Translations under genes and position numbers: made by a program
Part shown: positions 4,380 to 40,123 of the stretch, in pieces
How the letters are laid out: each line of letters starts with the position of its first letter
Position numbering within the stretch: the stretch's first letter is position 1
The notes under the pieces: generated by a model
Told to the model about the DNA's origin: nothing
Seen by the model: the letters and a program-made list of their open reading frames with translations, nothing else
Databases searched by the model: none
From: Nanobdellota archaeon
GTDB lineage: Archaea; Nanobdellota; Nanobdellia; Pacearchaeales; GW2011-AR1
Direction: 5' to 3'
DNA: 64,000 bases
Assembly (NCBI GenBank): GCA_038045445.1
Contig: JBBSYC010000001.1
Location: forward strand, 35,140-99,139

Positions 4380-5072
4380 ATGGCAGATAGAAAAATACCT
4401 ATTCATATTGGAATTATTCCAGATGGCAATCGTAGATGGGCTGTTTCTAAGGGTCTTGATAATCTTAAAGGGTATTCTAAAGTAGATTATAACCATTTGG
4501 AAAGTTTACTATTGGAAGCTAAAAAGTTAGGAGTTAAGTATGTTAGTTTATGGTTTTTTTCAACTGAAAATTGGAAAAGACCTAAAATAGAAGTTGATTT
4601 TCTTTTTAATCATTTTTTGAAAAATACTGATAAATTGTTGGAAGGGTGTTTGAAAAATAAAGTTAAAGTAAGGCATTTAGGCAGGAAAGATAGGTTGCCC
4701 AAAAAAGTTCTTGATGCTTTGGATAAACTTGAGTCTGAAACTTGCGGTTTTAAGGACTTTACTGTTCTTTTGTGCGTGGATTATGGGGGAAGAGATGAAA
4801 TATTGAGGGCAGTAAATAAAGTTTTAAGTTTAGGAGTCTCAAAGATTGACGAAGATAGTTTGAGGAATCTTTTGGATACGAAAGATATCCCAGACCCTGA
4901 TTTAATAATAAGGACATCTGGTGAAATGAGGCTTAGTGGATTCATGCCCTTTCAATCAGTTTATAGCGAATTTTATTTTCCAAGTATGCATTTTCCAGAT
5001 TTTAAACCTGAAAATTTGAAAGAGGCTGTTGAAGAATACTCTAAGCGTAAAAGAAATATGGGGGGGAATTGA
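4380..5072 (+). CDS. uppS: undecaprenyl/dehydrodolichyl diphosphate synthase (cis-prenyltransferase)
   Basis: IGIIPDGNRRWA signature near N-terminus, typical 230-aa length, ...RTSGE.RLSGF... C-terminal motif. Confidence 0.85.
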   Translation: MADRKIPIHIGIIPDGNRRWAVSKGLDNLKGYSKVDYNHLESLLLEAKKLGVKYVSLWFFSTENWKRPKIEVDFLFNHFLKNTDKLLEGCLKNKVKVRHLGRKDRLPKKVLDALDKLESETCGFKDFTVLLCVDYGGRDEILRAVNKVLSLGVSKIDEDSLRNLLDTKDIPDPDLIIRTSGEMRLSGFMPFQSVYSEFYFPSMHFPDFKPENLKEAVEEYSKRKRNMGGN

Positions 5073-5544: not shown

Positions 5545-6912
5545 ATGGGCAAACTAAAATGCGGACTTGAGATACATGCTTATCTTGTGACTGCTGAAAA
5601 GCTTTTCTGTCGTTGTAAGGCTTCTCGGGAAAGAGGGCTTGAGCCAAATACTTTAATTTGTCCGATATGCACCGGACAACCTGGAGCTAAACCAATGGCT
5701 CCAAATTCTAATGCTATAGAAAAGGCAGTGCAAATAGCTTTGCTTCTTGGATGCAAGGTTAATACAAATATTCCATGGATGCGTAAACATTATGATTGGC
5801 CAGACTTGCCTAAAGGATATCAGACTACTATGAGTGGACCCCATGCTACTCCCTTGGGGGTTTCTGGAAACTTTGAAGGGATTAGTATAGATAGTATGCA
5901 TGTTGAAGAAGATCCTGCATCTTGGGATCCAAAAAATGGAGCTGTAGATTATAACAGAAGCGGGTTACCCTTAGTAGAGATTGTAACTGCTCCAGATTTT
6001 AAGAATGCGGATGAAGTTTATGTTTGGGTCAATAAACTTGTTCATGCTTTGAATTATTTGAAGGCTATAGATACAAATGCTGGAATAAAGGCAGATGTAA
6101 ATGTCTCTCTTGTTGATGAAACTGGAAAGCAAAAGACAGAACGTGTTGAAATTAAAAATATTACATCTATCGAGGCTATGAAATCCGCTATTTTATTTGA
6201 GCATCAACGCCAAATTAATGAAGGAAGTGTTAGAGAGACTAGAAGATTTGATGAAGCTAAGGGAATTACTATGAGAATGAGGGGAAAAGAAGTTGCTGAT
6301 GATTATAGATTCATAGTTGACCCTGATTTGCAAATGGTTGTCTTACCTAGAAGTTTTGTAGAGAAACAAAAGAAACTTATTCCAGAGCTCCCTTCTGTAA
6401 AACTTGATAAGTTGATTAAGAAATATAAAATAGATGAAAAGAATGCTACTGTTCTTTCTAAAGATATTGATATAGTTTTATTTTTTGAAGATGTTTCAAA
6501 GCATATTGAGGGGAAATTTGCTTTGTCTTGGGTTACTGTTGAGCTCTTGAGAGTTTTAAATTATAACAATAAAAGATTAGGTGAAGTTTCTATTTCAGTT
6601 GAGCATTTTGTTAAATTACTTAAGATGGTTAGGGACAAGAAGATTACAGAATTGCAAGCTAAGCAGATATTGAATAAGTTTGTGCCTACGAGTTTTGACC
6701 CTTCTAATGTTGAAGGAAGAATAAGTGGTGAGAAGGAGCTTGAGCCAATTGTGAAGAAAGTAATTAATGATAACTCAAAAGCTGTGCTTGAATTTAGAAA
6801 TGGAGATATAAAAGCTTTTAATTTTTTGATTGGAGAGGTAATGAGAGCTACAAATAGAAGGGCTGATTCTGTTGCCGTTAGAAAATTGATTGATAAAATT
6901 ATTGGTAAATGA
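5545..6912 (+). CDS. gatB: aspartyl/glutamyl-tRNA amidotransferase subunit B
   Basis: GLEIHAYL plus KLFCRC...CPICTGQPGAKP zinc-Cys cluster typical of GatB; 455 aa. Confidence 0.85.
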   Translation: MGKLKCGLEIHAYLVTAEKLFCRCKASRERGLEPNTLICPICTGQPGAKPMAPNSNAIEKAVQIALLLGCKVNTNIPWMRKHYDWPDLPKGYQTTMSGPHATPLGVSGNFEGISIDSMHVEEDPASWDPKNGAVDYNRSGLPLVEIVTAPDFKNADEVYVWVNKLVHALNYLKAIDTNAGIKADVNVSLVDETGKQKTERVEIKNITSIEAMKSAILFEHQRQINEGSVRETRRFDEAKGITMRMRGKEVADDYRFIVDPDLQMVVLPRSFVEKQKKLIPELPSVKLDKLIKKYKIDEKNATVLSKDIDIVLFFEDVSKHIEGKFALSWVTVELLRVLNYNNKRLGEVSISVEHFVKLLKMVRDKKITELQAKQILNKFVPTSFDPSNVEGRISGEKELEPIVKKVINDNSKAVLEFRNGDIKAFNFLIGEVMRATNRRADSVAVRKLIDKIIGK

Positions 6913-7798: not shown

Positions 7799-10303
7799 CT
7801 AATAATCTTTAAGAAACTCTTTGTTTTTTTCTATAAACTTTATGTTTTGTTCTGCTATTTCAAAAGCGTTTGCTTGCACAATTTTATAAGGGATCTTATT
7901 TTTTTCTAGAAAATCTTTTACTTCTTTTTTTCCAGACTCTGTTGTCTGCGATATTACTAAAGTATCTATGAAATCTCTCATTAAATATTTGTTATCTTTA
8001 TGTTTTTTCATGTTTTCCCAGTTTTTTTCAAACCAACTCATTATTATTTTTTGACATAAGGGATTAACGAATATGTTTCTGAATACAAATAATAGATCTT
8101 GAGGTCTTACTTTTTCAGTTAGTGCATAATCAAGTGCTCTAATTATAATTTTTTCTTGACTGAAATAGTATAATCCAGACAAGAGTTTTATTTTAGACTC
8201 TTGATTTGATTCTTTTTCATATTTCGAAATCATGTCTTTAAATGTATTTTCATTTCCGTTTTTGGAAACTATGCAATATATTGAGCCAGCTATGTCTAGT
8301 TCGAAGTTTCCTTTTAGGTATCTGCTTTTGGCCTCTGTTATTGTTTCTTCGTCATTAGCAAAGCCACAGAAATGTATACAGAGATTTCTCATCAATCTTT
8401 CATCTGAAGAATCTTCTTTTTTATTATCCCAACCAAGTTTTTTAAGAATCGATTTATAGGATGGAAGGAGTAATCTTATTATTTTTTCCTTTGTTTTGGG
8501 CCACCATTTTTCATTGCCAAACAATCTGTCCAATTTTTTTATGTTTGAAGATATTTCTGCTAAAGTGAAATAATTTGCTTCATCTAAATAATTGTTTAAG
8601 AAACGAAGATATTCTTCAAGACTTTCTTCACCTATGTTTGAGAGAGCCCATAAGTCGTTGTGTACCCCCCATCTGTCTTGTTCATTTAGCCTTTTTTCTT
8701 TTATCATTATCCCAAGGTTTTTCAACAGTTCTTTTGAATATTTTGTCCTGTAAAATCCTAGTTGTTCGTGATTTGATTTTAGATATTGTTCCTTAATTGG
8801 ATAAATTTCTTCTTTTTTCTCAAAAAGCTTGTAGTGGCATGTATCTTCTGTGCATATTGATAAAGGAATTGGCCATACTTGGTTTGTTGTTTTGTTGCAT
8901 CTTTTTTGAGAGATTTTTAATCCATATTTATTTTTTTCTATTGAAATTAAAGGGTATCCCGGCTCTGAAACCCAATATTTCATCATCTCTTTTATTTTCT
9001 TGCCTTTTGAGACTTCATTTAGGGACTCCCAGAGGTCGGTGGCTTTTGCGTTACTATAAGAATGTTTTTTTAGGTAATTTGAGACTCCTATTCTAAATGC
9101 TTCTTCTCCTATGTAAGATTCAAGCATTCTTAAGACGCTTCCTCCCTTTTGGTAACTTATTTCATCAAAAACTTCTTCTATTTCTTCAGGGCTTTTGACT
9201 TCAACTTCAATAGGGTGCGTTCCCTTTAAAGAATCCTTGAATAGTCCTAATGACAAATCGTTTGAAAGATAATCATTCCAGACATTCCATTCAGGATTGT
9301 AGTGGTCAACTGCCTTGAAAGCCATATAATTTGCAAAGCTTTCATTAAGCCACAAGTCATTCCACCATTTCATTGTAACTAGGTCTCCAGACCATTGGTG
9401 CCATAATTCATGAGAGATTACTTCCGCGGACACCTTTTTTCTTGCCATAGAGGTTTTTTCTTCGTTTACCAATAAGACTAGTTCTCTAAAAGTAATTGCT
9501 CCCCAGTTTTCCATACCAGATATTATAAAATCAGGGATGGCTATCAAGTCAAGTTTTTCTAGTGGGTATGGAATTTCTGAATAATTTTCAAAGTATTCTA
9601 AGTATTTTTTAGTCTGCTCTAAGGCAAAATCTGCATCTTTAGTTTTACCAGGAGTTGTTACAACTCTTAATTTAACAGATTTATAATTATCTTCTTTGAA
9701 TTCAAAGTTTCCTATTCCCAGATAAAATAAATAGGTTGACATTTTTGGAGTTCTTTTAAACTTAACTATTTTTTTGTTTTTTTCTATATTCTCTGATTGG
9801 ATTTGCATGTTGCTTATTGCTTCAAGGTCCTTGTTTATTATTGTGGTTACGTCAAATGTTGCTTTTTTATCTGGCTCATCAAAACACGGAAAGATTTTTC
9901 TTGCATGGGACGCTTCACATTGAGTCGTTATTAGATAGTAAGTTTTACTGTTATGCTCGTATTTGCTTCGGTATATTCCTGCTAAATCCTCCGTTATCTT
10001 CCCCGTGAATTCTATGTGGACTTCAATATCTCCAGCGATTTCTTTTTGAACTTCTAGAGAGATTGTTTCAGATTCTTTGTTTTCTTTTAATTTTGGTAAC
10101 AAACACTGGCTTCCAATGCATATTGTAGCTGTCTTAATCTGAGAGTTCTTTGAATGAAGAATTATTTCTTTTGAGGGTTTTGTTATTTCTGCTTTAATTG
10201 TTACCTTACCTTCATATGTTGACATATCTGTTGAAGGCTCTATTGAGATTTGATAGTTTGAAGGAGTTATGTGCTCTGATAGTCTTAAGATTTCTTTTTT
10301 CAT
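7799..10303 (-). CDS. M1-family zinc aminopeptidase (aminopeptidase N / tricorn-interacting factor-like)
   Basis: GMEN exopeptidase motif (ISGMENWG), HELWHQWSGDLVT...WLNESFANY zincin HExxH-x18-E, 834 aa. Confidence 0.85.
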   Translation of the reverse strand: MKKEILRLSEHITPSNYQISIEPSTDMSTYEGKVTIKAEITKPSKEIILHSKNSQIKTATICIGSQCLLPKLKENKESETISLEVQKEIAGDIEVHIEFTGKITEDLAGIYRSKYEHNSKTYYLITTQCEASHARKIFPCFDEPDKKATFDVTTIINKDLEAISNMQIQSENIEKNKKIVKFKRTPKMSTYLFYLGIGNFEFKEDNYKSVKLRVVTTPGKTKDADFALEQTKKYLEYFENYSEIPYPLEKLDLIAIPDFIISGMENWGAITFRELVLLVNEEKTSMARKKVSAEVISHELWHQWSGDLVTMKWWNDLWLNESFANYMAFKAVDHYNPEWNVWNDYLSNDLSLGLFKDSLKGTHPIEVEVKSPEEIEEVFDEISYQKGGSVLRMLESYIGEEAFRIGVSNYLKKHSYSNAKATDLWESLNEVSKGKKIKEMMKYWVSEPGYPLISIEKNKYGLKISQKRCNKTTNQVWPIPLSICTEDTCHYKLFEKKEEIYPIKEQYLKSNHEQLGFYRTKYSKELLKNLGIMIKEKRLNEQDRWGVHNDLWALSNIGEESLEEYLRFLNNYLDEANYFTLAEISSNIKKLDRLFGNEKWWPKTKEKIIRLLLPSYKSILKKLGWDNKKEDSSDERLMRNLCIHFCGFANDEETITEAKSRYLKGNFELDIAGSIYCIVSKNGNENTFKDMISKYEKESNQESKIKLLSGLYYFSQEKIIIRALDYALTEKVRPQDLLFVFRNIFVNPLCQKIIMSWFEKNWENMKKHKDNKYLMRDFIDTLVISQTTESGKKEVKDFLEKNKIPYKIVQANAFEIAEQNIKFIEKNKEFLKDY

Positions 10304-10332: not shown

Positions 10333-11772
10333 GTGTTTTCATTCAATGGGATTATGGCTGATTCGAAAGGTTTGAGTGTTAAAAAGAATGAGAACTTTTC
10401 AGAATGGTATACTGAATTAATTCAAAAGGCAGAATTGGCAGATTATGCTCCTACTAGGGGTTTTATGATTGTTAGGCCGAGAGCTTATGCTTTGTGGGAA
10501 GCTATTCAGAAAGAATTTAATATGGTTTTAAAACAAAAAGGAGTGCAAAATGCTTATTTTCCTTTGCTGATTCCCGATTCTTTCTTTAAAAAAGAGGCAG
10601 AACATGCACAGGGGTTTGCTCCCGAATTAGCTTATATTGAACAAAAAGATGAAGGTGTTCGTTTAGCAATAAGACCTACTTCAGAGACAATTATGTATGA
10701 CTCCTATTCTAAATGGATTAGATCTCATAGAGATTTGCCTCTAAAATTGAATCAATGGTGTAATGTTTTGAGATGGGAAGTTAAACAGACTAAACCCTTT
10801 GTTAGAACTCGTGAATTTTTATGGCAAGAGGGCCATTGCGCCTTTGTAACCGATATTGAAGCTGAAGATAATATGAAAGAAATGATGTCTTCTTATCAAG
10901 AGCTTGTTGAAGGAATGCTTGCTATTCCAGTTATTGTTGGTAAAAAATCTAAAATGGAAAGATTTGCAGGCGCAGTTACTACTTTAACTATTGAAGCATT
11001 AATGCCTGATGGTAAGGCTTTGCAAATGGGAACTTCCCATAACTTGGGGCAAAATTTTGCTAAATCATTTAATATTATGTTTAAAGATAAAAATGAAAAG
11101 GATCAGTATGTCTGGCAGACTTCTTGGGGATTTTCTACTCGTTTAATAGGGGCTATTGCAATGGTTCATGGAGATGATAAGGGTTTAGTTATTCCTCCTA
11201 AAATTGCTTTGAATAAAGCTGTTATTGTGCCAATTTTATTTGAAGATTCTAAAGAAAATGTTTTAGTTCACTCTCGTAGTTTAGTTACTAAACTTTCAGA
11301 ATTTGGAGCTATTTTAGATGACCGAGAAGGTTACTCTGCTGGTTGGAAATTTAGTGAGTGGGAAATGAAGGGAATCCCATTAAGAATTGAAGTTGGACCA
11401 AAAGATTTAGATAAAAAGCAAGTTGTAATTGTTCGCCGAGATAATAACCATAAGGAAGTAGTTGCTGAGAAAGATATTGTAAAAAAAATTCAAATAATTT
11501 TAGAGGATATTCAAAAAGAACTATATCTAAATGCTCGTAAATTTTTAGACGGTAGAATTGATAACGCTAGAGATATAAAACAGTTAAATAAAAAACTTGA
11601 TGAGGGAAAAATGGTCAAGGTTTTTATGGTTGATGATAAAAAAATAGAGGAAAAATTGAAGGAAGAAACAGGCGCTAATTCAAGAATTGTTGAAGAAGAA
11701 AGTGCCGAAGGTGAATGTATTATCAGTGGTCAGAAAACAAAAACTGTAGCTTATGTGGCTAGGAATTATTAG
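10333..11772 (+). CDS. proS: prolyl-tRNA synthetase (archaeal/eukaryal type)
   Basis: Class II motifs and typical ProRS N-terminus (FSEWYTELIQKAELADYAPTRGFMIVRP). True start may be the internal ATG near 10354. Confidence 0.9.
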   Translation: MFSFNGIMADSKGLSVKKNENFSEWYTELIQKAELADYAPTRGFMIVRPRAYALWEAIQKEFNMVLKQKGVQNAYFPLLIPDSFFKKEAEHAQGFAPELAYIEQKDEGVRLAIRPTSETIMYDSYSKWIRSHRDLPLKLNQWCNVLRWEVKQTKPFVRTREFLWQEGHCAFVTDIEAEDNMKEMMSSYQELVEGMLAIPVIVGKKSKMERFAGAVTTLTIEALMPDGKALQMGTSHNLGQNFAKSFNIMFKDKNEKDQYVWQTSWGFSTRLIGAIAMVHGDDKGLVIPPKIALNKAVIVPILFEDSKENVLVHSRSLVTKLSEFGAILDDREGYSAGWKFSEWEMKGIPLRIEVGPKDLDKKQVVIVRRDNNHKEVVAEKDIVKKIQIILEDIQKELYLNARKFLDGRIDNARDIKQLNKKLDEGKMVKVFMVDDKKIEEKLKEETGANSRIVEEESAEGECIISGQKTKTVAYVARNY

Positions 11773-12447: not shown

Positions 12448-13719
12448 ATGGCTGAATTGGATTTCAATTATGGAGATAGAGTAAAGATTAGACTTGCAAG
12501 AAATGAAATTGAAGGAATTGTTCTTGAAAGTTATGATAAAGATGTTATCCTTTTGAAGCTGGCTTCTGGATATAATATTGGAATACCTAAGGAAAATATT
12601 CTTGATTTTCTGGTTATTGAAAAATTTAAGGAGAATACTAAAAAAGATGAGATTGTTTTCAAGAATAAGGATAAACCTTCGATTGGACTTGTGATAACTG
12701 GAGGAACTATTGCCGCTAAACTTGATTCACGCACTGGAGGAGTATCTTGGTTGACTAATGTTAATGAATTTTCTAGATTTTATCCAAATATTTTTGAGAA
12801 AGCAAATGTAAAAAAAATATCTGTTCCTTTTATGACTTCTTCTGAAAATATGAATCATGAACATTGGATAACTATTGCTGAACATGTTAAACAGATGCTT
12901 GATGATCCTGAAATTAAAGGAGTTATAGTTACTCACGGGACAGATACTTTGCATTATACTTCTTCTGCTCTTAGTTTTTTTCTCAAGGATTTGAAAAAGC
13001 CTGTTGTTCTCACTTTTTCTCAAAGAAGTATTGACAGGGCTTCTTCTGACGCTGAACTTAATTTGGATTGTGCGGTTCAGATGGCTTTATCTAATTGTGC
13101 AGAAGTTATGATAGTGGGGCATGCTACTCAAAATGATGATTATTGCTTTGCCTTGCGTGGAACAAAGGTGCGCAAATTTCACACATCTAGAAGAGACACT
13201 TTTAAATCAGTTAATTGTGAACCAATTGCCAAAGTCTGGCCGAATAAAATAGAGTTTTTATCAAGTTATAATGCTCGTTCAGATGGATTGAGTAAGTTAG
13301 ATTCAGAATTCTCTGAAAAAGTTGGATTGGTATATTATTATCCAGGGCAGGACCCTTCAATTTTAGATTATTATTTAGTTCAAGGTTATAAAGGAATTGT
13401 TATTGTCGCCACTGGTTTTGGGCATGTTGCTACGGGAGATGTTGAGCATTCTTGGATTCCGACTTTAAAGAGGCTGATAAAACAAGGAGTTGCGGTTTGT
13501 TTTGCTCCTCAGACAATTTATGGGAGGCTGAATCCCAAGGTTTATTCTCCTGGAAGAGAACTTGAGAGTCTTGGAGTGATTTATTTGGAAGATATTCTGC
13601 CAGAGACTGCTTTCGTGAAACTTGGATATGTTTTAGGCCATAAACAGTGGAAGGGTCTTGTTCGTGAGAAGATGCTTGAGAATATTGCCGGAGAGTTTAA
13701 TCCTCTGCTGACAGAGTAG
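12448..13719 (+). CDS. gatD: Glu-tRNA(Gln) amidotransferase subunit D (asparaginase-like)
   Basis: N-terminal GatD-specific domain followed by an asparaginase fold (GLVITGGTIAAK, THGTDTLHYTSSALSF). Confidence 0.85.
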   Translation: MAELDFNYGDRVKIRLARNEIEGIVLESYDKDVILLKLASGYNIGIPKENILDFLVIEKFKENTKKDEIVFKNKDKPSIGLVITGGTIAAKLDSRTGGVSWLTNVNEFSRFYPNIFEKANVKKISVPFMTSSENMNHEHWITIAEHVKQMLDDPEIKGVIVTHGTDTLHYTSSALSFFLKDLKKPVVLTFSQRSIDRASSDAELNLDCAVQMALSNCAEVMIVGHATQNDDYCFALRGTKVRKFHTSRRDTFKSVNCEPIAKVWPNKIEFLSSYNARSDGLSKLDSEFSEKVGLVYYYPGQDPSILDYYLVQGYKGIVIVATGFGHVATGDVEHSWIPTLKRLIKQGVAVCFAPQTIYGRLNPKVYSPGRELESLGVIYLEDILPETAFVKLGYVLGHKQWKGLVREKMLENIAGEFNPLLTE

Positions 13720-13780: not shown

Positions 13781-14692
13781 ATGGATGAACCACAAAAGAA
13801 GAAGGAACGTGCTGTAAAATGTGATGGTAGATTTGGATCTATTAGAGAGTTTCTTCATAGCGAAGCAGTTCCAATAGTATTAGAAGATAAACCTATGTTT
13901 TCTTGGAGAGATTTGCAAGATTTATGGAGTCTTATTTATCCAGAAATTTTGGCATATGAAGACTTTAGGGATCCGTACTTTGAGAATAGTAGAGATCCTT
14001 TACGCAGAACTCCTCCTGAATCTGGCTTAGCACTACTTCCTCTTTTTGATATAGCTATACGTCCTGATTTAGATGTAATGATTCGTTACGGGAATGCAAT
14101 GGGTTGTGATCCCAGGGTCTCAGGAAGACTATTTTACATGGGTATGAGATTGTCTAATGTTTTCAACGATTTATTCGGTAGAGGCTCTAAAGATATAAAA
14201 TTACCTAGTGGTGCGGATCTTAGGGGGTATAGTGTAGCCTCTAATTTTGGTATTGGTTCAATATCTCATGGAGGTACTAAAGGTGGAGGTGTTAGATCAG
14301 ATTCTCCTTTTCTTTTAGAAGTATATCAAGATTCTAGAGAAGGAGATACTCGTGGTGAAAGAAATCTAGCGGGAGTCATAGGTTTCTGGCCACAGGATAA
14401 TAATCTGCTGGTCTCTCAAATGCAGTCTTGTAGGAATGCTCAATATCCCGAGGGGGAAAAATTTGGAGTAGTCTCTCTTCGTATTGCAGAAGCATTTGCC
14501 AAACTTGCCGGATTTGATAATGTTTTGGCTTATTCTGCAAGAAACCATCCTCAATTTTTAGCTCACCCTGACAGTTTAGGGCAATTAGAGCAAACATTCA
14601 AATGTATGTGGGACTCCTCTGCACACAAATTAGATTATACAGGATCTAGCACTCAAAATTATTCAAAAAATGTTAAAAATGGAAGCAAGTAA
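13781..14692 (+). CDS. hypothetical protein inserted between gatD and gatE
   Basis: 303-aa ORF with no recognisable motifs. Locally GC-richer than neighbours by eye. Confidence 0.4.
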   Translation: MDEPQKKKERAVKCDGRFGSIREFLHSEAVPIVLEDKPMFSWRDLQDLWSLIYPEILAYEDFRDPYFENSRDPLRRTPPESGLALLPLFDIAIRPDLDVMIRYGNAMGCDPRVSGRLFYMGMRLSNVFNDLFGRGSKDIKLPSGADLRGYSVASNFGIGSISHGGTKGGGVRSDSPFLLEVYQDSREGDTRGERNLAGVIGFWPQDNNLLVSQMQSCRNAQYPEGEKFGVVSLRIAEAFAKLAGFDNVLAYSARNHPQFLAHPDSLGQLEQTFKCMWDSSAHKLDYTGSSTQNYSKNVKNGSK

Positions 14693-14723: not shown

Positions 14724-16172
14724 ATGCATGATTGCGCTAAGATTGGCTTCAAGGCTGGACTTGAAATACACCAACAAATTGATTCTCCTAAACTGTTTTC
14801 TGGAGCTCCATCTTTTTTGAGAAGCGACGAACCAGATTATACTATTTCTCGCAAGCTTCATGCTGTTGCAGGAGAAAGCGGGAAGATTGATACTGCAGTA
14901 GGTTATGAATCTGGTTTGGATAAAACATTTTTTTACGAGGGTTACAAAGATACTGTTTCACTTGTGGAGTTAGATGAAGAACCTGCTCATGCTGTCAATG
15001 ACGAAGCACTTAATACCGCTTTGACTGTTGCATTGCTTCTTAATTGCGAGATTTATCCAGTGACTCAAGTTATGCGTAAGACTGTAATTGATGGTTCAAA
15101 TACTTCTGGATTTCAAAGAACTGTTTTAATTGCTCATGATGGGAATATTGAAACTTCTTATGGCAATGTGAGTGTTGCTTCTGTTTGTCTTGAGGAAGAT
15201 TCTGCTCGCGTTATAACTCGCGATAAAAATAAAACTGTTTATCGCCTTGATAGATTGGGAATACCTCTTGTTGAAATTGCTACTTATCCTGATTTACACA
15301 ATTCGGAACAAGTTAAAGAATGTGCTCTTAAGATTGGAGAGATTTTGAGAGCTTGTAAAGTTAAAAGGGGAATTGGAACAATTAGACAAGATGTTAATAT
15401 CTCCATCTCTGGACACGATAGGGTTGAAATAAAAGGATTTCAAGATCCGAAGATGATGATTAAGACCATTGATGTTGAAATAGATAGACAACTGGAAAAT
15501 ATTAAGAATAAAAAATCTATTGGAGATGTTAGAAATGCTTTACCAGATGGTAAAAGTGAATTTCTAAGGCCAATGCCTGGAGCAGATAGGATGTATCCTG
15601 AGACTGACTTGGCTTTATTACGCATTGGAAGAGCTAGAATAGATTTTTTAAAGAAGAACTTGCCCAAACTAAAAACAGAATTGCGTGATGAATTGCGCAA
15701 GAAAGGAGTTAGTGAAGATTTAATTGAGTTAGTTCTTGATTCACAAGATACTTTTGGAGAGTTTGAAACCTTGACAAGAGTTTATCCTGCAGATGCGAAT
15801 CTTGTTGCTAAAATGATTACTTTATGGAGGCAAGAGTTTGCTTCTAAGAATAAAGTAGATTTTGAAAGAGTTAGAAGTGTTTTGAATGAAAGAGTTTATG
15901 AAAAAGTTTTAAGTGCGATTGCAGACTCTAAGCTAGCAATTTCTGATGTAAAATCTGTTCTTGCCAAGGTTATTAGTGGAATTGGTATAGGGGAAGCGCT
16001 TATATTTGATAAAGTGAGTGATGATGATATTGAAAAAGAAATTAGAGATTTAATAAAAGAAAAACCTGGAATGAGAGCTAATGCTTATATGGGAATGTTG
16101 ATGGCTAAGTTTAAGGGAAAGTTAGATGCCAAGAAGGCAATGGAGTTGATTGAGAGAGTTTTGAGAGATTAG
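14724..16172 (+). CDS. gatE: Glu-tRNA(Gln) amidotransferase subunit E
   Basis: GatB/E-family N-terminus GLEIHQQI, LVELDEEPAH, GIPLVEIATYPD, GTIRQDVNISI. Lacks the GatB Cys cluster. Adjacent to gatD. Shorter (482 aa) than typical GatE. Confidence 0.75.
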   Translation: MHDCAKIGFKAGLEIHQQIDSPKLFSGAPSFLRSDEPDYTISRKLHAVAGESGKIDTAVGYESGLDKTFFYEGYKDTVSLVELDEEPAHAVNDEALNTALTVALLLNCEIYPVTQVMRKTVIDGSNTSGFQRTVLIAHDGNIETSYGNVSVASVCLEEDSARVITRDKNKTVYRLDRLGIPLVEIATYPDLHNSEQVKECALKIGEILRACKVKRGIGTIRQDVNISISGHDRVEIKGFQDPKMMIKTIDVEIDRQLENIKNKKSIGDVRNALPDGKSEFLRPMPGADRMYPETDLALLRIGRARIDFLKKNLPKLKTELRDELRKKGVSEDLIELVLDSQDTFGEFETLTRVYPADANLVAKMITLWRQEFASKNKVDFERVRSVLNERVYEKVLSAIADSKLAISDVKSVLAKVISGIGIGEALIFDKVSDDDIEKEIRDLIKEKPGMRANAYMGMLMAKFKGKLDAKKAMELIERVLRD

Positions 16173-16261
16173 GTTTAGGTATTGGAATAATATCCTCTTT
16201 AGGGATGCTTGATTAATTTATTATAGATTAATTTTTAAAGAGGGTTTTAGTTGGTTTTAAT

Positions 16262-17317
16262 ATGGGCTCCATTATACAATCTGTAGGCACTTATTCTCCT
16301 GAAAGAATTTTGACTAATCAAGATTTAGAGAGAATTCTTGCTCTTAGTGGACAGGAAACAAGTGATTCTTGGATTATTGAAAGAACTGGAATTCATAGAA
16401 GAAGAGTAGCTTCTATTAGCGAAACTGTTGAAACAATGGCTCTAAGTGCTAGTTTAGATGCTGTTAAAAGACTTAGACAAAGTTCTCTCCCTATTCAACA
16501 CATTATTGTTGCTACAAATACTCATGAAAATAATTTCCCTAATGTTGCTGGTTATGTTGCAGAGGGTATAGTTGACTCTTATCCTCATTTAATTGAGAGA
16601 AGTGCTTCTGGAACTGATTTAAGTGCTGGTTGTGGGGGAGTTAATTTTGCTTTAATGTATGCAGATTCTTTGATAAAATCAAGAAAATTTGATAGTGTTT
16701 TAGTTTTAGGGACAGAGCATCTTTCAGATGTTACAGATTATAGAGATAGGACTACTTGTGTTTTATTTGGAGATGGAGCTTCAGCTTATGTTTTATGTCG
16801 TGGAGAAACATCTGGATTTTTAGGTGATTTTCCTAAAGGAGAAAGTTCTGGGCGTAGTCTTATTTATTGTGAGAATGATCAGGAAAAAGTTACTCTACAA
16901 GAGGCTTTATCTGCTTTAAAAGATGGGAGAAAACCATCTATTTCAAGAGGAAAAGTATTGAGGATGAATGGTAAAAAGGTTTTTAGATATGTGACTGAAT
17001 GTTGGAGGGATTTGCTTGAACATTTTTATGAACCGAGACTAAATCCTGATGGAATTGATTTTGGAGATGTTGGATGGATTGCCCCCCACTTGGCTAATCT
17101 TAGATGTCTCGAAAACGCGGGAAATGATATTCCTGGATTTTTGGATAAATGTGGTTTGATAGGAGAAGATTTGCTTGAATTTTGTAATACTTCTACTGCA
17201 TCTCAGGGGAGAAGAGTCAAACAATTTTTTGAAAACGCAAAACAAGGGGAGTATTTATTAATGCATGGTTATGGGGCAGGGCTTCAATCTTGCGCTAACT
17301 TATATCAGCAACCTTAA
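16262..17317 (+). CDS. 3-oxoacyl-ACP synthase III (FabH/KAS III)-like condensing enzyme
   Basis: TYSPERILTNQDLERI, WIIERTGIHRR, active-site Cys in DLSAGCGGVNFAL, FGDGASAYVL, APHLANLR (His) and CNTSTAS (Asn). Cys-His-Asn triad of FabH-type enzymes is intact. Confidence 0.75.
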   Translation: MGSIIQSVGTYSPERILTNQDLERILALSGQETSDSWIIERTGIHRRRVASISETVETMALSASLDAVKRLRQSSLPIQHIIVATNTHENNFPNVAGYVAEGIVDSYPHLIERSASGTDLSAGCGGVNFALMYADSLIKSRKFDSVLVLGTEHLSDVTDYRDRTTCVLFGDGASAYVLCRGETSGFLGDFPKGESSGRSLIYCENDQEKVTLQEALSALKDGRKPSISRGKVLRMNGKKVFRYVTECWRDLLEHFYEPRLNPDGIDFGDVGWIAPHLANLRCLENAGNDIPGFLDKCGLIGEDLLEFCNTSTASQGRRVKQFFENAKQGEYLLMHGYGAGLQSCANLYQQP

Positions 17318-17347: not shown

Positions 17348-18670
17348 ATGTTTGATATGGATTATTGGAAACTGCTTTCTGAAAGAAAGATGATTAATAC
17401 ACTAGAATCTAAAGAATCTAAGAATGTTGTTATTGCTGGATGGGTTTATGATCAGCGTGACTTGGGAAAGATTAGATTTCTTGTTTTGAGAGATTTTTCT
17501 GGAGAGATACAAGTAATTGCTCATAAAGATAAAGCTCCTAAGGAAGTTTTTGACTTAATGCAGAAAGCTTCTCGTGAAAGTGTGGTTCTTATTTCAGGGA
17601 AAATTCAAAAGAGTGAAAAAGCTTCTGGTGGAAGAGAGCTTGTTGCTGAACATTTTGAAATTCTTTCCGAGGCTGAACATCCCTTACCTATTGATGTATC
17701 TGACTTTTCAAAAACAGAATTGCCTAAGAGGCTTGATTATAGGTATGTTGATTTTCATAGAAGGAGAACACAAGCAATCTTCAAGATACAGAGCACCATT
17801 TCTACAGCATTCAAGGATTTTTTTGTTTCTAAGAGCTTTATCGAAATGCAACCTCCTTGTTTGATAGGTGTTGCTTCTGAAGGTGGAGCAGATGTTTTCA
17901 AAGTAAAATATTTTGAAAAGGAAGCTTGTCTTGCTCAAAGCCCCCAATTGTATAAGGAAATGGTTGCTTGTTCCATGGAAAAAACTTTTATGATTACACC
18001 TGTTTGGAGAGCTGAAAAACATAATACGGTCAGACATATAAATGAGATTCGCCAGATGGATATTGAATGTTCTTTCATGAGTCAGATGGATGTCATGAAG
18101 TTAGAAGAAGAATGTGTTAAGCATGTTGTTTCTGAAGTTATAAAGAAAAATAAAGCTGAAGTTGAACTTTTGGGTTTGAAATTAAAAGTGCCTACTGCTA
18201 AATATATTTCTTATGATGAAACTATTTCATTGTTAAAGAAGAATGGAATCAAAATTTCTATTGGAGATGATTTGAATCCTGAAGCTGAAAAGAAACTTGG
18301 GGAGTTATTTCCAGATACTTTGGTTTTTGTTCATTCGTGGCCTTCTTCGCTTAAACCATTTTATATTATGCCTAAAGGAGGGGATGCGAATTCTGATTAT
18401 TCGGAAGGTTTTGATTGTATATATAATGGTCTTGAGATAACATCTGGAGGGCAGAGAATTCATACGCCTGATTTGTTATTGAAAAGAATAAAACATAAAG
18501 GTATGAAAATAGATGGTTTAATGGATTACGTTAATTCCTTTAGATATGGTGCTGCTCCACACTCTGGATGGTCTATAGGTCTTGAAAGATTAACTATGCT
18601 TTTGTGTGAACTTGATAATGTCAGGGAAGCAACGATGTTCCCCAGAGATAGAGATAGACTTACGCCTTAA
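17348..18670 (+). CDS. aspS: aspartyl-tRNA synthetase (archaeal type, probably non-discriminating)
   Basis: OB-fold N-terminus, class II motifs (FRAE..HNTVRH, GGQRIH, GLERL). Confidence 0.9.
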   Translation: MFDMDYWKLLSERKMINTLESKESKNVVIAGWVYDQRDLGKIRFLVLRDFSGEIQVIAHKDKAPKEVFDLMQKASRESVVLISGKIQKSEKASGGRELVAEHFEILSEAEHPLPIDVSDFSKTELPKRLDYRYVDFHRRRTQAIFKIQSTISTAFKDFFVSKSFIEMQPPCLIGVASEGGADVFKVKYFEKEACLAQSPQLYKEMVACSMEKTFMITPVWRAEKHNTVRHINEIRQMDIECSFMSQMDVMKLEEECVKHVVSEVIKKNKAEVELLGLKLKVPTAKYISYDETISLLKKNGIKISIGDDLNPEAEKKLGELFPDTLVFVHSWPSSLKPFYIMPKGGDANSDYSEGFDCIYNGLEITSGGQRIHTPDLLLKRIKHKGMKIDGLMDYVNSFRYGAAPHSGWSIGLERLTMLLCELDNVREATMFPRDRDRLTP

Positions 18671-20346: not shown

Positions 20347-20688
20347 TTAAATTTTATCTTTAAATTCTTCTTTTATTTTTTCAAGTCTCTCAAATAACTT
20401 TTTGTATTCTTTTGATTTAGTATAATTTTCATCATGATCTAAAACTGGACCCAAGACGAATGCTACAACTAAAGAGTTTTCTATTCTAATACAATACACT
20501 CTATACTTTGAACCTACTTTTATTTCACAAAATCCACCATGTTGATAAGACATTGGTTTTGCTATATCTTGGTTGGTAATCAAGCTATTTACTTTCTTTT
20601 CAACGGCGATACGCCAAGTATTTCCAAGATCGTTTAAACTATCCAAATAAGTCTTAGTCTGATATATTTTGATTTTTTTGTTTGTCAT
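20347..20688 (-). CDS. RelE/ParE-family toxin
   Basis: C-terminal GFCEIKVGSKYRVYCIRIENSLVVAFVLGPVLDHDENY fits the RelE/ParE pattern. 4-bp overlap with the upstream RHH gene. Confidence 0.6.
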   Translation of the reverse strand: MTNKKIKIYQTKTYLDSLNDLGNTWRIAVEKKVNSLITNQDIAKPMSYQHGGFCEIKVGSKYRVYCIRIENSLVVAFVLGPVLDHDENYTKSKEYKKLFERLEKIKEEFKDKI

Positions 20689-21230
20689 TTTATCTCCTTT
20701 TTTAAATAAGAAATAAATAAAAGAATTCTATCGTCTTCTGCACCTTCTAATGCGACAGCTTTTACTTTTATCAGCTCAGATTTAATAGTTCCAACAATAT
20801 TTTTCATAATTTCACTAATTTTGCTAATATCTGTTTTTTTCATTGCAAAATGAATATAAATTCCATTTACAGCGGTACGATCTAAATTGTTAATTCTATT
20901 CTCTATATTTTCTAGACTTTCTTCAAACATAAAGGTCTCATTCTTATCAATTACATTAATAATATCGCGATAAACATAACTTGGAGCATTCCCTAAATAT
21001 TTCTTTATTGTTTCTAGATGAATCTTAAGAGAGGGCATATGTTCTATAACTTTTTCTAAATCTTTAAACTCCCATTCATGAAGATCAATAAACTGTTCAA
21101 TAGCCATGTTTGTCAAGGCAGTAATAGTTTTACTCTTTTTCTCTGCGAGTGTTGAAAGACGAGTATGTAAATCTTTTTTCAAACGAATTACTACGGATTC
21201 TTCATCAGTCTTTTTTAAGTCTTCTATCAT
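20685..21230 (-). CDS. ribbon-helix-helix (CopG-like) antitoxin with a long uncharacterised C-terminal extension
   Basis: N-terminal VVIRLKKDLHTRLSTLAEKKSKTITALTNMAIEQFI is a classic RHH. 181 aa total. ATGA overlap with the toxin. Confidence 0.5.
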   Translation of the reverse strand: MIEDLKKTDEESVVIRLKKDLHTRLSTLAEKKSKTITALTNMAIEQFIDLHEWEFKDLEKVIEHMPSLKIHLETIKKYLGNAPSYVYRDIINVIDKNETFMFEESLENIENRINNLDRTAVNGIYIHFAMKKTDISKISEIMKNIVGTIKSELIKVKAVALEGAEDDRILLFISYLKKEIK

Positions 21231-21284
21231 GTTAGTAACACGTTGTATACAACTTGATACTACTTATAAATCTTTTGATTTTCG

Positions 21285-22214
21285 TTATGATTTTCCAATA
21301 ATCACTAAGTTGTGAATTAAAGCTTTCAACATCAACTCATTATCTCTTGCAACATCATTTCTAGTTCTCAGCCAGTTCATTGAACGCCTTTTTATTGTAG
21401 ATATTACTCCTTCTACTCCCCATCTGTATCTATAAGCATCTCTAAATCTTTCATGATTCTTTTTGTATAAGTTGAAAGCAGTGTTCCAAGCCTTACTTCC
21501 ACCTCCAAATTTGCTGTTTGATCTAAAGTTGATGAAAGCATTTTGAATTCCTAATTCCTCAGTTAATTCATAATGCCTTTTGCTTAGATAACCTGCGTCT
21601 GCTAATACTGTGTTCAAATCAAATCCATTGAATTTAACTGCAGTTACAATCTCCTCAAAGAATTTAGCATCATGTTCCGTTCCTTGAGAAGTTCTAGCAT
21701 AGGCTATTACCTTACTATCTCTAATTATTCCAATATGTAATTTTCTAGTCTTTCTAAGTGATGGAATCCCACTATGTCTTTTGCTTGCAGGTTTGTTAGT
21801 AAAACCTCCAACATACATTTTCAAGCCCATCCAAGTGCTATCTAAAATAAGAGTTTGATTGCTTCTGATAAATTGCCTTGCAGATTCTTGAATGAGTAAC
21901 CCTAGAAGTTTGTAAGTCTCTATACTATTCATATATTTACAGACAGCACTTCTTTTTATCGGGTGAGAGATAATACCTTGTCTTTGTGCAAATAGCATTT
22001 CACTATACCCTTTTCTGTAAGAATTACTTGGATAAGCCATTAATAACAAACATTTCAAAGCATTTTTGTAATGTGGTCTTATTTGTTCATCAGAAAATTT
22101 ATCAAAGAAATTTGCAAGAGTTGATGAATAATTGTATTTTTCTAATTCAAGAGCTTCATCTTTTATTATAGGAACTATGATTTTTCTTTCTAGCAATGGA
22201 GTTTGTTGTATCAT
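21285..22214 (-). mobile_element. DDE transposase (IS4/IS5-superfamily-like) of an insertion sequence
   Basis: Candidate DDE residues in LDSTW, VLADAGY and YRYRWGVEGVISTIKRR; 309 aa. Terminal inverted repeats not confidently identified. Confidence 0.6.
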
Positions 22215-22215
22215 G

Positions 22216-22575
22216 TTAATACCTCAACTCTCTAAACTCAACTTTTCCTTCTTCTACCATTTTCTTAATTCTTTCTTGTTTTGGAGACAGTTTTGAGCCC
22301 CCAGTTTTTATTTCAATAAACTTGATAGTATCTTCATCAAAACAAAGTCCATCTATAGGCATTCCTAAATGTATGAATGTTTCTTTAGAACCCGGAAAGT
22401 CTTTTGTAAATGGTGCAAAATGTTCAAAGGTCTTTCCGAACTTTACATATGCAGAACGTAAATCGTGTTTGCATTTATCTAATTCTGTTTGGATAGTCTT
22501 ATTTTGTCTTACAGTTCTAGAGATAAAATAGACTGCTATGCCTATGATTGTTAAAGCCGTTATTTCGGTTATCAT
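22216..22575 (-). CDS. membrane-anchored PD-(D/E)xK-like nuclease-fold protein
   Basis: N-terminal TM (ITALTIIGIAVYFI), then GMPIDGLCFDEDTIKFIEIKTG matching a D...E.K restriction-endonuclease-like core. Abuts the transposase start. Confidence 0.4.
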   Translation of the reverse strand: MITEITALTIIGIAVYFISRTVRQNKTIQTELDKCKHDLRSAYVKFGKTFEHFAPFTKDFPGSKETFIHLGMPIDGLCFDEDTIKFIEIKTGGSKLSPKQERIKKMVEEGKVEFRELRY

Positions 22576-28155: not shown

Positions 28156-29463
28156 ATGGGTATTGTGGAAGATAAGGTGAAGGTTTACTTATCTAGGATA
28201 AAAGAATATAATAAATTGGTTAATGCTTTTATTGAATTGAGTAATGAAAATGAAATTCTTTCTGAAGCTAGAATGCTTGACTCTAAAACTAAGAAAGGAA
28301 GACTTTATGGTTATGTTATCGGAGTAAAGAGCAATATTTGCGTAAAGGGGTTACATGCTTCTTGCGCTTCTAAAACTCTTGAGGATTATAAAGCACCTTA
28401 TGATGCTACTGCAGTTAAAAGAATTAAAGAAGAGGATGGCCTCATTATAGGAATGCTTAATTGTGATGAATTTGCATGTGGTTGGACTGGAGAAACAAGC
28501 GCTTTTGGAAAATCTCATAACCCTGCGGTTCCAGACCATATATCAGGAGGGTCTTCTTCTGGTGCGGCGGTTGCTGTTGCTGCAGGTTTTTGTGATGTTG
28601 CTTTGGGAAGCGATACTGGGGGGAGCATAAGAGTTCCTTCTTCATTTTGCGGTGTTGTTGGTGTAAAGCCCAGCTATGGTTGCGTTTCCAGATATGGGTT
28701 GATTGATTTGTCAATGTCTCTTGATCAAATAGGACCTATTTCTAAGAATGTTTCTGATTCTGTTTTGTTGTTAGATGTAATAAAAGGTTTGGATGAAAGA
28801 GACACTACTACTTTTAATTCTAAACCTATTAAGATTGAGAAAATTAGCAAAATCAAATATGGAATTGTTAGAGTTTCAGAAGTTGATTCAAGAATATTAG
28901 ATTTGATTGACTCTTTTTTGGCAAAAATCTCAAGTAAATTAAAATGGTCTGAGAAAAAGGTTAATTTGAAATATATTAATTTTGGGATTCAGACTTATCA
29001 TCCTTTGGTATGGACAGAGTTCTTTTCTGCTACTCGCAGAATGGATGGAAGACGATTTGGTAAAAAAATAGAAGAATCCGCAGGTCCTGAAGTTTTAAGG
29101 AGAATTTTAGGGGGAAGCGAAATTTCAAGAGCGGAATTTAAGGGCCAATATTATCAGAAGGCACTTGCCGCCAAGGATTTAATCAAGAGAGAGTTTGATA
29201 ATGTCTTTAAGGAAGTTGATTGCTTAATAATGCCTACTGTTCCGATGTTGCCTTGGAAGTTTGGTACAGAGGTTTCTATGAACAAGTTATATGCTATAGA
29301 TGCTTTAACTATTCCCGGAAACCTTGCGGGTGTTTGTGCTATTTCTATCCCTATTGGAAAAATAGAGAGTAAACCTGTTGGATTGCAGGTTGTTTGTGCT
29401 AAAGGGGATGAGAGCAGGATGTTTAGTATTGCTAAGGAGATAGAAAACATTGTGAAAGAGTAA
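28156..29463 (+). CDS. gatA: aspartyl/glutamyl-tRNA amidotransferase subunit A (amidase)
   Basis: Amidase signature GGSSSGAAVAVAAGF...GSDTGGSIRVPS. Confidence 0.8.
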   Translation: MGIVEDKVKVYLSRIKEYNKLVNAFIELSNENEILSEARMLDSKTKKGRLYGYVIGVKSNICVKGLHASCASKTLEDYKAPYDATAVKRIKEEDGLIIGMLNCDEFACGWTGETSAFGKSHNPAVPDHISGGSSSGAAVAVAAGFCDVALGSDTGGSIRVPSSFCGVVGVKPSYGCVSRYGLIDLSMSLDQIGPISKNVSDSVLLLDVIKGLDERDTTTFNSKPIKIEKISKIKYGIVRVSEVDSRILDLIDSFLAKISSKLKWSEKKVNLKYINFGIQTYHPLVWTEFFSATRRMDGRRFGKKIEESAGPEVLRRILGGSEISRAEFKGQYYQKALAAKDLIKREFDNVFKEVDCLIMPTVPMLPWKFGTEVSMNKLYAIDALTIPGNLAGVCAISIPIGKIESKPVGLQVVCAKGDESRMFSIAKEIENIVKE

Positions 29464-31268: not shown

Positions 31269-31970
31269 ATGAAAAAAATAGAATTGTTAAGAGTACTTGA
31301 GAAATATCCATTGTTTACATTTAACGAGTTTGTTAAAATTACTGGAAAGAGCATTAAATATTCTAGGACTTACATATATAGATTAAAAAAAGATAAACTA
31401 ATATTTGAAATTGAGAAGGGTAAATATACTCTTAAAGATAACCCTCTGATATTTGCCTCTTTTATAACTGCTCCTTCTTATATTAGTTTTTGGACTGCTT
31501 TGAGATTTTATAATGTTACTGATCAGCTTCCAAATGAGATAATGGTAGCTTCTAAAAGATCTAAAAAAGAGATAACTTTTCTGAATGCTAAAATAAAATT
31601 CTATAAAGTGAAATATTTATGGGGATATCGAAAAATTAGATACAATAATTTTGATATATTCATTGCAGAATTAGAGAAGAGCATTATTGATTCTGTTGCA
31701 TCTGGTCTGGTTCCTTTGAGCGAGATTGTAGATGTATTGATAAATGAAGAGATTAATACTCTAAAACTTAAGGAATTTGCGATTAAAACTGGAAGTAAAT
31801 CATTAATAAAAAGAATTGGATTCTTACTGGATAAAATCAAAGTTGATGCTGATGAAATGCTTAAGTATATTGACTATAATTATATAATATTAGATATTAA
31901 TAATAAAAGTAAAGGTGATAAAAATAAAAAATGGAGGATAATTGATAATTTGAGCTATGATTTCACTTGA
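31269..31970 (+). CDS. AbiEi-like antitoxin/transcriptional regulator (type IV TA / abortive infection)
   Basis: N-terminal wHTH (LEKYPLFTFNEFVKITGKSIKYSRTYIYRLKKDKLIFEIEKGKYTL). Overlaps the downstream nucleotidyltransferase gene by 14 nt. Confidence 0.55.
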   Translation: MKKIELLRVLEKYPLFTFNEFVKITGKSIKYSRTYIYRLKKDKLIFEIEKGKYTLKDNPLIFASFITAPSYISFWTALRFYNVTDQLPNEIMVASKRSKKEITFLNAKIKFYKVKYLWGYRKIRYNNFDIFIAELEKSIIDSVASGLVPLSEIVDVLINEEINTLKLKEFAIKTGSKSLIKRIGFLLDKIKVDADEMLKYIDYNYIILDINNKSKGDKNKKWRIIDNLSYDFT

Positions 31971-40105: not shown

Positions 40106-40123
40106 ATCTTTATAAAGTCCTCT

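Follow-up and report, generated by a model that had tools for sequence, protein, structure and literature searches.

A DPANN-restricted clade of FabH-like proteins with the KAS III fold, encoded apart from other fab genes

We analyzed a 64,000-nucleotide stretch of DNA from a Nanobdellota archaeon (positions 35,140 to 99,139 of contig JBBSYC010000001.1, assembly GCA_038045445.1), which is called the window throughout, and followed up a single gene in it. This gene encodes a protein that is, by its predicted structure and its catalytic residues, a beta-ketoacyl-acyl carrier protein synthase III (KAS III, FabH). The protein scores below the curated thresholds for FabH and is not encoded in the genomic context of a bacterial fabH gene. 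It belongs to a clade that is restricted to DPANN archaea. Judged from its sequence, there is about an even chance that it would be catalytically active as a KAS III-type condensing enzyme that stands alone, specific to this DPANN clade and encoded by an accessory gene outside a fab operon. The gene is the following:

16262-17317, plus strand: FabH-like (KAS III-fold) gene, ATG start, 351 amino acids, member of the DPANN-restricted clade according to family scans, PDB search, structure model and tree

Assignment to the FabH family

A first-pass annotation, made from the sequence without database searches, had called this open reading frame (ORF) a FabH homologue. The ORF has exactly the extent given there, and the similarity to FabH was far above chance. 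Pfam detected the domain ACP_syn_III (PF08545) with 73 bits (E 1.9e-20, cutoff 24). The NCBIfam FabH models NF006829 and TIGR00747 scored 212.8 and 196.2 bits (E 6e-63 and 7e-58). Next to these values, the models for 3-hydroxy-3-methylglutaryl-coenzyme A (HMG-CoA) synthase gave 36 bits for NF003274, covering residues 5-153 only (cutoff 244), and 17.7 bits for TIGR01835 (cutoff 360). No match to the Chal_sti_synt domains (PF00195, PF02797) was found for the protein in Pfam. Based on the model scores, an identity as HMG-CoA synthase, thiolase or type III polyketide synthase was ruled out.

The solved structures were searched by sequence as well. All strong matches were FabH enzymes, the best being 8vdb with an E-value of 3e-38. 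The related enzymes BioZ, PqsD and CorB were matched far more weakly, with E-values of 4e-10 to 2e-6 (PqsD 5e-10, CorB 2e-6). A placement among HMG-CoA synthase- or thiolase-like proteins, which the annotation had named as the competing outcome, was therefore not found: the FabH models reached 196-213 bits against 36 and 18 bits, and the top structures were all FabH.

The identical protein is on record as MEK6914974.1, 'hypothetical protein AABW89_00335 [Nanoarchaeota archaeon]'. The window is also part of a 145,770-bp DPANN contig from Hainich groundwater (ENA ERZ1292616).

Predicted structure

An AlphaFold model of the protein was computed with an input alignment of 92 sequences (alignment A3). 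The model had a mean predicted local distance difference test (pLDDT) score of 96 and a predicted template modelling (pTM) score of 0.94, and showed a two-lobed thiolase fold over the full length. In a Foldseek search against the PDB, matches 1-44 were all FabH or priming KAS III enzymes, with E-values down to 6e-34. The template modelling (TM) scores were 0.75-0.81 when normalized to the query and up to 0.89 when normalized to the target.

Five insertions distinguish the archaeal proteins from bacterial FabH:

16895-16921, plus strand: largest of the insertions specific to the clade, residues 212-220 (LQEALSALK), opposite a gap in over 80% of bacterial FabH, with an extra helix at 212-221 in the model
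16340-16354, 16577-16597, 17015-17029 and 17162-17170, plus strand: four smaller clade insertions, residues 27-31, 106-112, 252-256 and 301-303, likewise opposite gaps in over 80% of bacterial FabH

Aligned to E. coli residues ~190-205, the helix at 212-220 would lie in the flap over the FabH active-site entrance.

Catalytic and binding residues

Residues were mapped in an alignment of 24 archaeal relatives, four bacterial FabH proteins and the FabH of E. coli, whose sequence as used here reproduces the literature numbering C112, H244 and N274. Cys124, His276 and Asn309 of the window protein align with these three residues, and the intact Cys-His-Asn triad of the annotation was thereby confirmed. 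The mapped positions are:

16631-16633, plus strand: codon of catalytic Cys124, aligned to E. coli C112, the acyl-enzyme nucleophile; invariant in alignments A1, A2 and A3
17087-17089, plus strand: codon of catalytic His276, aligned to E. coli H244
17087-17104, plus strand: motif H276-L277-A278-N279-L280-R281, aligned to E. coli H244-Q245-A246-N247-L248-R249
17186-17188, plus strand: codon of catalytic Asn309, aligned to E. coli N274; invariant, within the clade motif N-T-S-T-A-S-Q-G
16370-16384, plus strand: W37...R41, aligned to E. coli W32 and R36; binding of the coenzyme A (CoA) primer
16748-16750, plus strand: R163, aligned to E. coli R151; CoA-primer binding together with W37 and R41

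Cys124, Asn279, Arg281, Asn309, Trp37 and Arg163 were invariant across all sequences of A3 (92/92), and Arg41 was nearly so. Asn279 corresponds to E. coli N247, which contacts the pantetheine. Phe92 is conserved and corresponds to F87, which closes the acyl pocket. Arg281 is the equivalent of R249, an arginine used in E. coli for docking of the acyl carrier protein (ACP). The ACP-docking patch of E. coli also includes the lysines K214, K256 and K257. Only about 60% of the clade members carry basic residues at the equivalent positions, which in the window protein are Arg242, Asn288 and Asp289. Position 277 is a leucine in 92% of the clade, and a glutamine stands at the aligned position in 87% of bacterial FabH.

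The catalytic histidine was replaced by tyrosine in one cluster representative only (P0009). A genuine loss was rejected, since the near-identical sister P0380 keeps the histidine, and the tyrosine was taken as a variant or an error.

A separate clade in DPANN archaea

The family comprises about 40 clusters at 90% identity, which align with the whole length of the query at 45-64% identity. Beyond this core, identity drops sharply to 38% (P0043) and then to 30-37% for the closest bacterial FabH. The named members are all hypothetical proteins of Nanoarchaeota or Candidatus Pacearchaeota. A profile of the clade was run against 1.84 billion representatives. About 11 representatives at the 50% identity level scored above 314 bits; below them a thin gradient extended from 275 to 214 bits, followed by the plateau of bacterial FabH at about 200 bits.

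A neighbour-joining tree was calculated from 125 sequences and 318 columns with 200 bootstraps; some 70 of the sequences were a sample of bacterial FabH. A clade of 51 sequences stood apart from bacterial FabH (99% bootstrap) and united the core family with the P0043 group and a few additional representatives. An inner clade held 46 sequences (84% bootstrap). The outlying P0043 branch is also from DPANN: a neighbouring oxidoreductase subunit on the P0043 contig shares 79% identity with a protein of Candidatus Woesearchaeota. The suggestion of an archaeal FabH-like family is thus supported by some 40 clusters, by names from DPANN only and by the bootstrap value of the clade.

Apart from the five insertions, 31 diagnostic positions separate the clade from bacterial FabH. 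They include Leu277, Tyr337 (for Phe304), Gln315 (for Ile), Arg318 (for Ala), Cys203, Cys297, Asn86, Asn128 and Tyr348. A C-terminal motif C-A-N-L-Y is among the clade-specific features.

Search for partners of type II fatty-acid synthesis

As a positive control, 80 bacterial fabH loci were used, which also supplied sequences for the tree. They came from a profile search of contigs with the clade alignment, a search that was dominated by the generic LFGDGA pattern and gave bacterial fabH loci only. PlsX was present in 54 of these loci, FabF in 36, FabD in 34, FabG in 33 and ACP in 29. Profiles of PlsX, FabF, FabD and ACP built from the control loci found nothing in the 64-kb window or in the family loci L001-L008. 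ACP, FabD, FabF, FabZ, FabI and PlsX were also absent within 10 kb in nine family contexts, from the gene lists for L089-L091 and L095, from a Pfam scan of the window and from the 8.7 kb past its right end, so that about 73 kb of the contig were covered. The 8.7 kb encode a methionyl-tRNA synthetase (MetRS), a major facilitator superfamily transporter, a helicase and a pyrophosphatase.

The sole match of a control profile in the window was a short-chain dehydrogenase/reductase (SDR):

61998-62696, minus strand: classical SDR, called FabG-type in the first-pass annotation; not assigned to the FabH-like feature

The SDR is indeed there, on the minus strand, and reached 177 bits against the FabG profile. 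It cannot count as a FabG partner. In NCBIfam the best matches were models for SDR oxidoreductase, glucose 1-dehydrogenase and FabG, every one under its cutoff, which leaves a generic SDR. Furthermore, it lies 45 kb from the FabH-like gene, in a setting of toxin-antitoxin genes; its neighbours are HicAB, DUF4258/DUF2283 and MetRS.

These results bear on the possibility that the protein is a canonical FabH, which would start a dispersed bacterial-type fatty-acid synthesis (FAS II) from acetyl-CoA and malonyl-ACP, the other Fab genes lying elsewhere in the genome. We regard this as possible, with a probability well below even. The fully conserved triad and CoA-binding residues agree with it, as do the invariant Arg281, the basic docking equivalents in most clade members and the presence of a FabG-like SDR in the window. 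In contrast, the partner genes were missing from all contexts inspected, and the same genes were found in 29-54 of the 80 control loci. Both curated FabH cutoffs were missed, and the equivalents of K256 and K257 are Asn and Asp in the window protein. Among 5.8 billion sequences the family accounts for only about 40 clusters, a rarity which means that most DPANN archaea are without it. Moreover, the gene is mosaic and fast-diverging, unlike a core gene of lipid synthesis. ACP and ACP synthase are generally lacking in archaea (PMC3533463; bioRxiv 10.1101/2024.07.05.601840).

Several observations weigh against a stand-alone condensing enzyme of a separate clade. The scores with the curated NCBIfam models stay below their cutoffs (212.8 against 249 and 196.2 against 292.1), and because of this NCBI names every member 'hypothetical protein'. 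In Pfam the C-terminal domain ACP_syn_III_C (PF08541) scored 23.7 bits, slightly under the gathering score of 26.6. The invariance of Arg281 suits an ACP-dependent enzyme equally well, and genes for ACP and a scattered FAS II may lie in other parts of the genome, the search for partners having covered about 73 kb of the contig. A decarboxylative condensation needs malonyl-CoA, and no carboxylase that could supply it was seen in the same 73 kb. The changes next to the active site (Leu277, Tyr337, Gln315 and Arg318) could, to judge from the alignment, mean a different chemistry. Finally, two reports describe bacterial fatty-acid genes in DPANN archaea, namely FabG, FabI and FabZ in several metagenome-assembled genomes (MAGs) (PMC10936187) and fatty-acid genes near those of the methylerythritol phosphate (MEP) pathway in some Woesearchaeota (PMC8204110). 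These reports also speak for the canonical role.

Comparison with known systems

Bacterial FabH, such as E. coli FabH and B. subtilis FabHB (8vdb), is the closest known system. Both sides have the thiolase-type fold in common (target-normalized TM ~0.8-0.9 for the best structures), the Cys-His-Asn triad, CoA binding by Trp/Arg/Arg, the arginine at the ACP-docking position, the phenylalanine that closes the pocket and the GxGxG oxyanion loop. In contrast to bacterial FabH, the protein has an archaeal host, is only 28-37% identical and carries the five insertions and 31 clade-specific residues. Its gene also lies outside any plsX-fabHDG-acpP-fabF cluster.

The specialized enzymes PqsD, BioZ (3-oxopimeloyl-ACP synthase), CorB and the priming ketosynthases of the ZhuH type have the same fold; they often stand alone or serve a specific pathway and take a CoA primer. 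As far as the alignments show, however, they do not share the clade insertions, and the archaeal gene does not lie in a biosynthetic cluster.

The prevailing view is that archaea have neither ACP nor the bacterial condensing enzymes, and the characterized route is the thiolase/DUF35 system (PMC3533463; bioRxiv 10.1101/2024.07.05.601840). Together with HMG-CoA synthase this system leads to mevalonate, and with a reductase and a dehydratase to ACP-independent fatty-acid synthesis. It resembles the protein described here in belonging to the thiolase superfamily and in carrying out the first C-C bond-forming step on CoA thioesters (PMC3533463; bioRxiv 10.1101/2024.07.05.601840). Its thiolases are non-decarboxylative and DUF35-dependent, whereas the query is of the KAS III type and has no DUF35 or thiolase gene nearby.

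The Fab genes of DPANN MAGs (PMC10936187, PMC8204110) are a precedent for bacterial fatty-acid genes in these archaea; here, in contrast, no other Fab gene is linked. In the portions of the main text available for both papers, neither FabH nor KAS III is named, and two supplementary files of PMC8204110 hold no FabH, 3-oxoacyl, ketoacyl or acyl-carrier term. None of the papers searched mentions DPANN together with FabH, and literature searches that combined DPANN with FabH or KAS III gave no specific result.

Proposed reaction and other possible functions

For the stand-alone condensing enzyme, a course of reaction can be proposed by homology to FabH. A homodimer of the thiolase fold would bind a short acyl-CoA primer, W37 and R163 holding the adenine and R41 the phosphates. 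A small acyl pocket is suggested by F92, which is conserved and corresponds to E. coli F87, and the primer would accordingly be small. The acyl group would be passed to Cys124. A malonyl thioester would then be decarboxylated, and the enolate would be stabilized by His276 and Asn309. Claisen condensation would release a 3-ketoacyl thioester, most simply an acetoacetyl unit. Candidate destinations of the product are a dispersed fatty-acid route, the supply of acetoacetyl-CoA, or a small lipid or metabolite; malonyl-ACP and malonyl-CoA are both candidates for the extender.

A more specific proposal goes further, and we put it forward only tentatively, as an unlikely case. The protein could be an ACP-independent KAS III with a lineage-specific use, making short beta-ketoacyl-CoA toward bacterial-type acyl chains or toward a lipid or metabolite at the interface with the host. 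In that case, diversifying selection or an exchange of alleles, linked to host or substrate specificity, would lie behind the allelic lineages described below. DPANN archaea are regarded as dependent on their hosts for their lipids. If this proposal were true, the protein would be a type of condensing enzyme new to archaea and would give a new handle on the way in which lipid-dependent episymbionts cross the 'lipid divide'.

In either form, a conserved, selected and DPANN-restricted KAS III-type enzyme is a clonable candidate for the question whether some DPANN archaea produce acyl or beta-ketoacyl units themselves, and whether ACP takes part in this. The surprise is limited, since the diversity of FabH-like enzymes is large and Fab genes of the bacterial type have already been reported from DPANN MAGs. 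What the analysis contributes is a defined clade with its signature, a translation-gene context shown to be non-functional, and an unusual allelic divergence.

It was also considered that the protein does not condense at all. Some enzymes of the FabH fold pass acyl or malonyl groups to acceptors with a hydroxyl or amine. As an acyltransferase of this kind, it would use Cys124 only to shuttle an acyl group from CoA to an acceptor, which could be a sugar, a small metabolite or a lipid scavenged from the host. In favour of this, the gene stands alone without machinery for extender units nearby, there are clade-specific changes around the active site, an extra helix is predicted by the model in the entrance flap, and the allelic diversity in close genomes is high, as expected with variable host-derived substrates. 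One member is located two genes downstream of a palmitoyl-thioesterase/lipase-like hydrolase. However, His276 and Asn309, which serve decarboxylation and enolate stabilization, are retained clade-wide, and the protein is closest to true FabH, with E-values of 3e-38 against 5e-10 for PqsD and 2e-6 for CorB. We regard this function as unlikely.

Stand-alone, CoA-dependent KAS III enzymes of the NphT7 kind are known in bacteria. An acetoacetyl-CoA synthase of this kind would join acetyl-CoA and malonyl-CoA and feed the mevalonate pathway in place of the archaeal thiolase/DUF35 step. The organism does use isoprenoid units, as its cis-prenyltransferase gene (4380-5072) indicates, and a polyprenyl synthase is encoded three genes away from the outlying member P0043. 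Mevalonate-pathway genes are reported in Pacearchaeota MAGs (PMC10936187). In contrast, neither the window nor the position next to the gene in any context holds a mevalonate-pathway gene, be it for HMG-CoA synthase, HMG-CoA reductase or a kinase, and a source of malonyl-CoA was not seen. We consider this role improbable.

By its match to TIGR00055 (191 bits, cutoff 110), the cis-prenyltransferase is of the undecaprenyl/dolichyl-diphosphate synthase type. Since the enzyme is present, the organism consumes isoprenoid units; no gene of the isoprenoid precursor pathway was visible in the 64-kb window.

Selection, divergence and origin

The ratio of non-synonymous to synonymous substitution rates (dN/dS) of the FabH-like gene was 0.22 at a dS of 0.39 for L001 versus L003, the least saturated pair, and 0.30-0.38 in more saturated pairs. 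Flanking genes gave 0.09-0.20. The FabH-like gene is under purifying selection.

GatD and GatE are 73-85% identical among five close genomes (the window, L001, L003, L089 and L095) and 59-65% identical to the outgroup L090. In the same five genomes the FabH-like protein is 84% identical between L001 and L003, with a dS below that of the flanks, 64% identical between the window and L095, and 53-57% identical in the remaining pairs. Identity to the outgroup is 48-53%, which is little lower than in most ingroup pairs. A uniform fast clock does not account for this, given the 84% identity and lower dS of L001 and L003 against 53-57% elsewhere. The pattern would fit deep allelic lineages that were replaced between conserved flanks, or a large class of rapidly saturating sites.

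The region as a whole is mosaic, and discordance was also observed for two of its other genes. Prolyl-tRNA synthetase (ProRS; 10333-11772) occurs in two types, 40-43% identical to each other, in genomes that are otherwise about 80% identical. The window and L095 carry one type (81%), L001, L003 and L089 the other (82-86%), and L090 a third. The M1 peptidase (7799-10303) is 86% identical between L095 and L001 versus 64-66% in other pairs. The discordance of these two genes suggests frequent replacement of alleles or xenologues in these DPANN populations.

With a GC content of 0.358 and its codon usage, the FabH-like gene resembles the neighbouring genes, and it occupies the same slot next to gatE in independent assemblies of several projects. 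A horizontally acquired bacterial gene, as raised in the first reading of the sequence, was not supported as a recent acquisition, on these grounds and because the closest bacterial FabH is only 30-37% identical; from composition and identity levels together, a recent horizontal transfer was rejected. The clade most likely originated from an old transfer from bacteria to DPANN, followed by long divergence.

The same data speak on whether the gene might be a decaying relic or a misbinned bacterial gene without function in the archaeon. It does diverge faster than its flanks, and its product is labelled 'hypothetical protein' by NCBI. However, the ORF is intact in every member, the catalytic residues are invariant, and dN/dS is 0.22-0.38. 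On long contigs of independent assemblies, the gene also has the archaeal genes gatE and aspS on either side, and it shares the composition of its neighbours. Because selection, residue conservation and the independent assemblies contradict it, a relic or a binning error is highly improbable.

Neighbourhood and synteny

The location between gatE and aspS was confirmed by the GatB_N domain of the upstream gene and by the aspS equivalog model:

14724-16172, plus strand: gatE, upstream flank, GatB_N domain with 168 bits; syntenic in L001, L003, L089, L090 and L095
12448-13719: gatD, preceding gatE
17348-18670, plus strand: non-discriminating aspS, downstream flank, NCBIfam NF003483 with 499 bits against a cutoff of 353
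16217-16239, plus strand: AT-rich TATA-like stretch TTTATTATAGATTAATTTTTAAA in the 89-bp spacer that separates gatE from the FabH-like gene, 23-45 bp ahead of the ATG, read from the sequence

The order gatD, variable gene, gatE, FabH-like gene and aspS is repeated in L001, L003 and L089, and L090 and L095 have gatD, the variable gene, gatE and the FabH-like gene in common with it. In P0029 both gatE and aspS are kept as flanks, and in P0032 only the aminoacyl-tRNA synthetase (aaRS) side. The window, L001, L003, L089 and L095 are the closest genomes, collinear over tens of kb and with flank proteins that are 73-88% identical. More divergent members (46-48% identical) are located downstream of the gene for elongation factor EF-1alpha, and those of the P0043 group between LemA and a methyltransferase. 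Clustering of all family neighbours within 6 kb revealed no recurring partner gene. Since the close genomes are collinear, the distant members are found elsewhere and no partner recurs, the arrangement is inherited synteny and not a functional operon. A functional tie to gatD, gatE or aspS was thus ruled out, and the translation-gene neighbourhood, which the first-pass annotation had pointed out, reflects descent within one lineage.

The TATA-like stretch may be the gene's own archaeal promoter, as far as its position and composition can tell. A scan for sigma-70 promoters was uninformative, with 25 sites found and 25.5 expected.

In the P0032 locus a palmitoyl-thioesterase/lipase-like alpha/beta hydrolase (L091, 1018-1779) is encoded two genes upstream of the FabH-like gene. 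It is the sole lipid-related neighbour noted as such in any family context and was seen once.

A single gene was found between gatD and gatE in every case (window 13781-14692, L001 7367-8470, L003 6787-7791, L089 7071-7895, L090 7268-8083, L095 5330-6361). The six proteins are mutually dissimilar (all pairwise blastp E-values above 0.1), and a conserved partner gene in this slot was ruled out, as the proteins lack detectable mutual similarity. The window protein has 303 amino acids and gave no match in PDB, PADLOC, Pfam or NCBIfam; its structure predicted from the single sequence had a pLDDT of 35. The slot proteins of L001, L089 and L090 are unknowns of 367, 274 and 271 amino acids. L003 encodes a Fic-domain protein that matches SoFic-type defence models, and L095 a truncated class-I aaRS-like protein of 343 amino acids (PF01921), which retains the HIGH (HLGN) and KMSKS (KMSKG) motifs. 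The slot looks like a hypervariable cargo site within a conserved tRNA-amidation gene pair.

Other genes of the window

The window as a whole is a typical small-genome DPANN stretch. Its translation genes encode GatB, GatD, GatE, a GatA-like amidase, ProRS, aspartyl-tRNA synthetase (AspRS), a class I aaRS of the Val/Leu/Ile type, MetRS, an eRF1/Pelota-like protein, deoxyhypusine synthase, the nascent polypeptide-associated complex (NAC) protein and MnmA. Other genes encode FtsZ, repair enzymes, toxin-antitoxin pairs, a transposase, giant surface proteins and the cis-prenyltransferase. Both routes of tRNA-dependent amidation are represented (5545-6912, 12448-13719, 14724-16172, 17348-18670 and 28156-29463), with GatD, GatE, a full-length GatB with YqeY domain, the GatA-like amidase and the non-discriminating AspRS. 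This gene content points to an indirect formation of both Gln-tRNA and Asn-tRNA. The MnmA-type tRNA 2-thiouridylase (36808-37878, minus strand) has all three domains and was found in L091 too; this type is typically bacterial.

Three consecutive surface proteins of 724, 2410 and 1048 amino acids are predicted at 37931-50527, with TIG/IPT, fibronectin type III and MopE-like metal-binding motifs. The protein of 1048 amino acids has no Pfam match. It is plausible that these giant proteins serve an episymbiont in the attachment to its host.

A mobile or defence-like patch at 20347-22575 (minus strand) contains a DDE transposase (21285-22214), a Holliday-junction-resolvase-like endonuclease and two unknown small genes. 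The GC content falls to about 0.30 across 20-24 kb. Further on, at 31269-32727 (plus strand), an AbiEi/AbiEii toxin-antitoxin pair belongs to the same mobile or defence-like category. Finally, an ORF of 505 amino acids at 59691-61208, which has no Pfam or NCBIfam match, adjoins a MinD/ParA ATPase in three assemblies.

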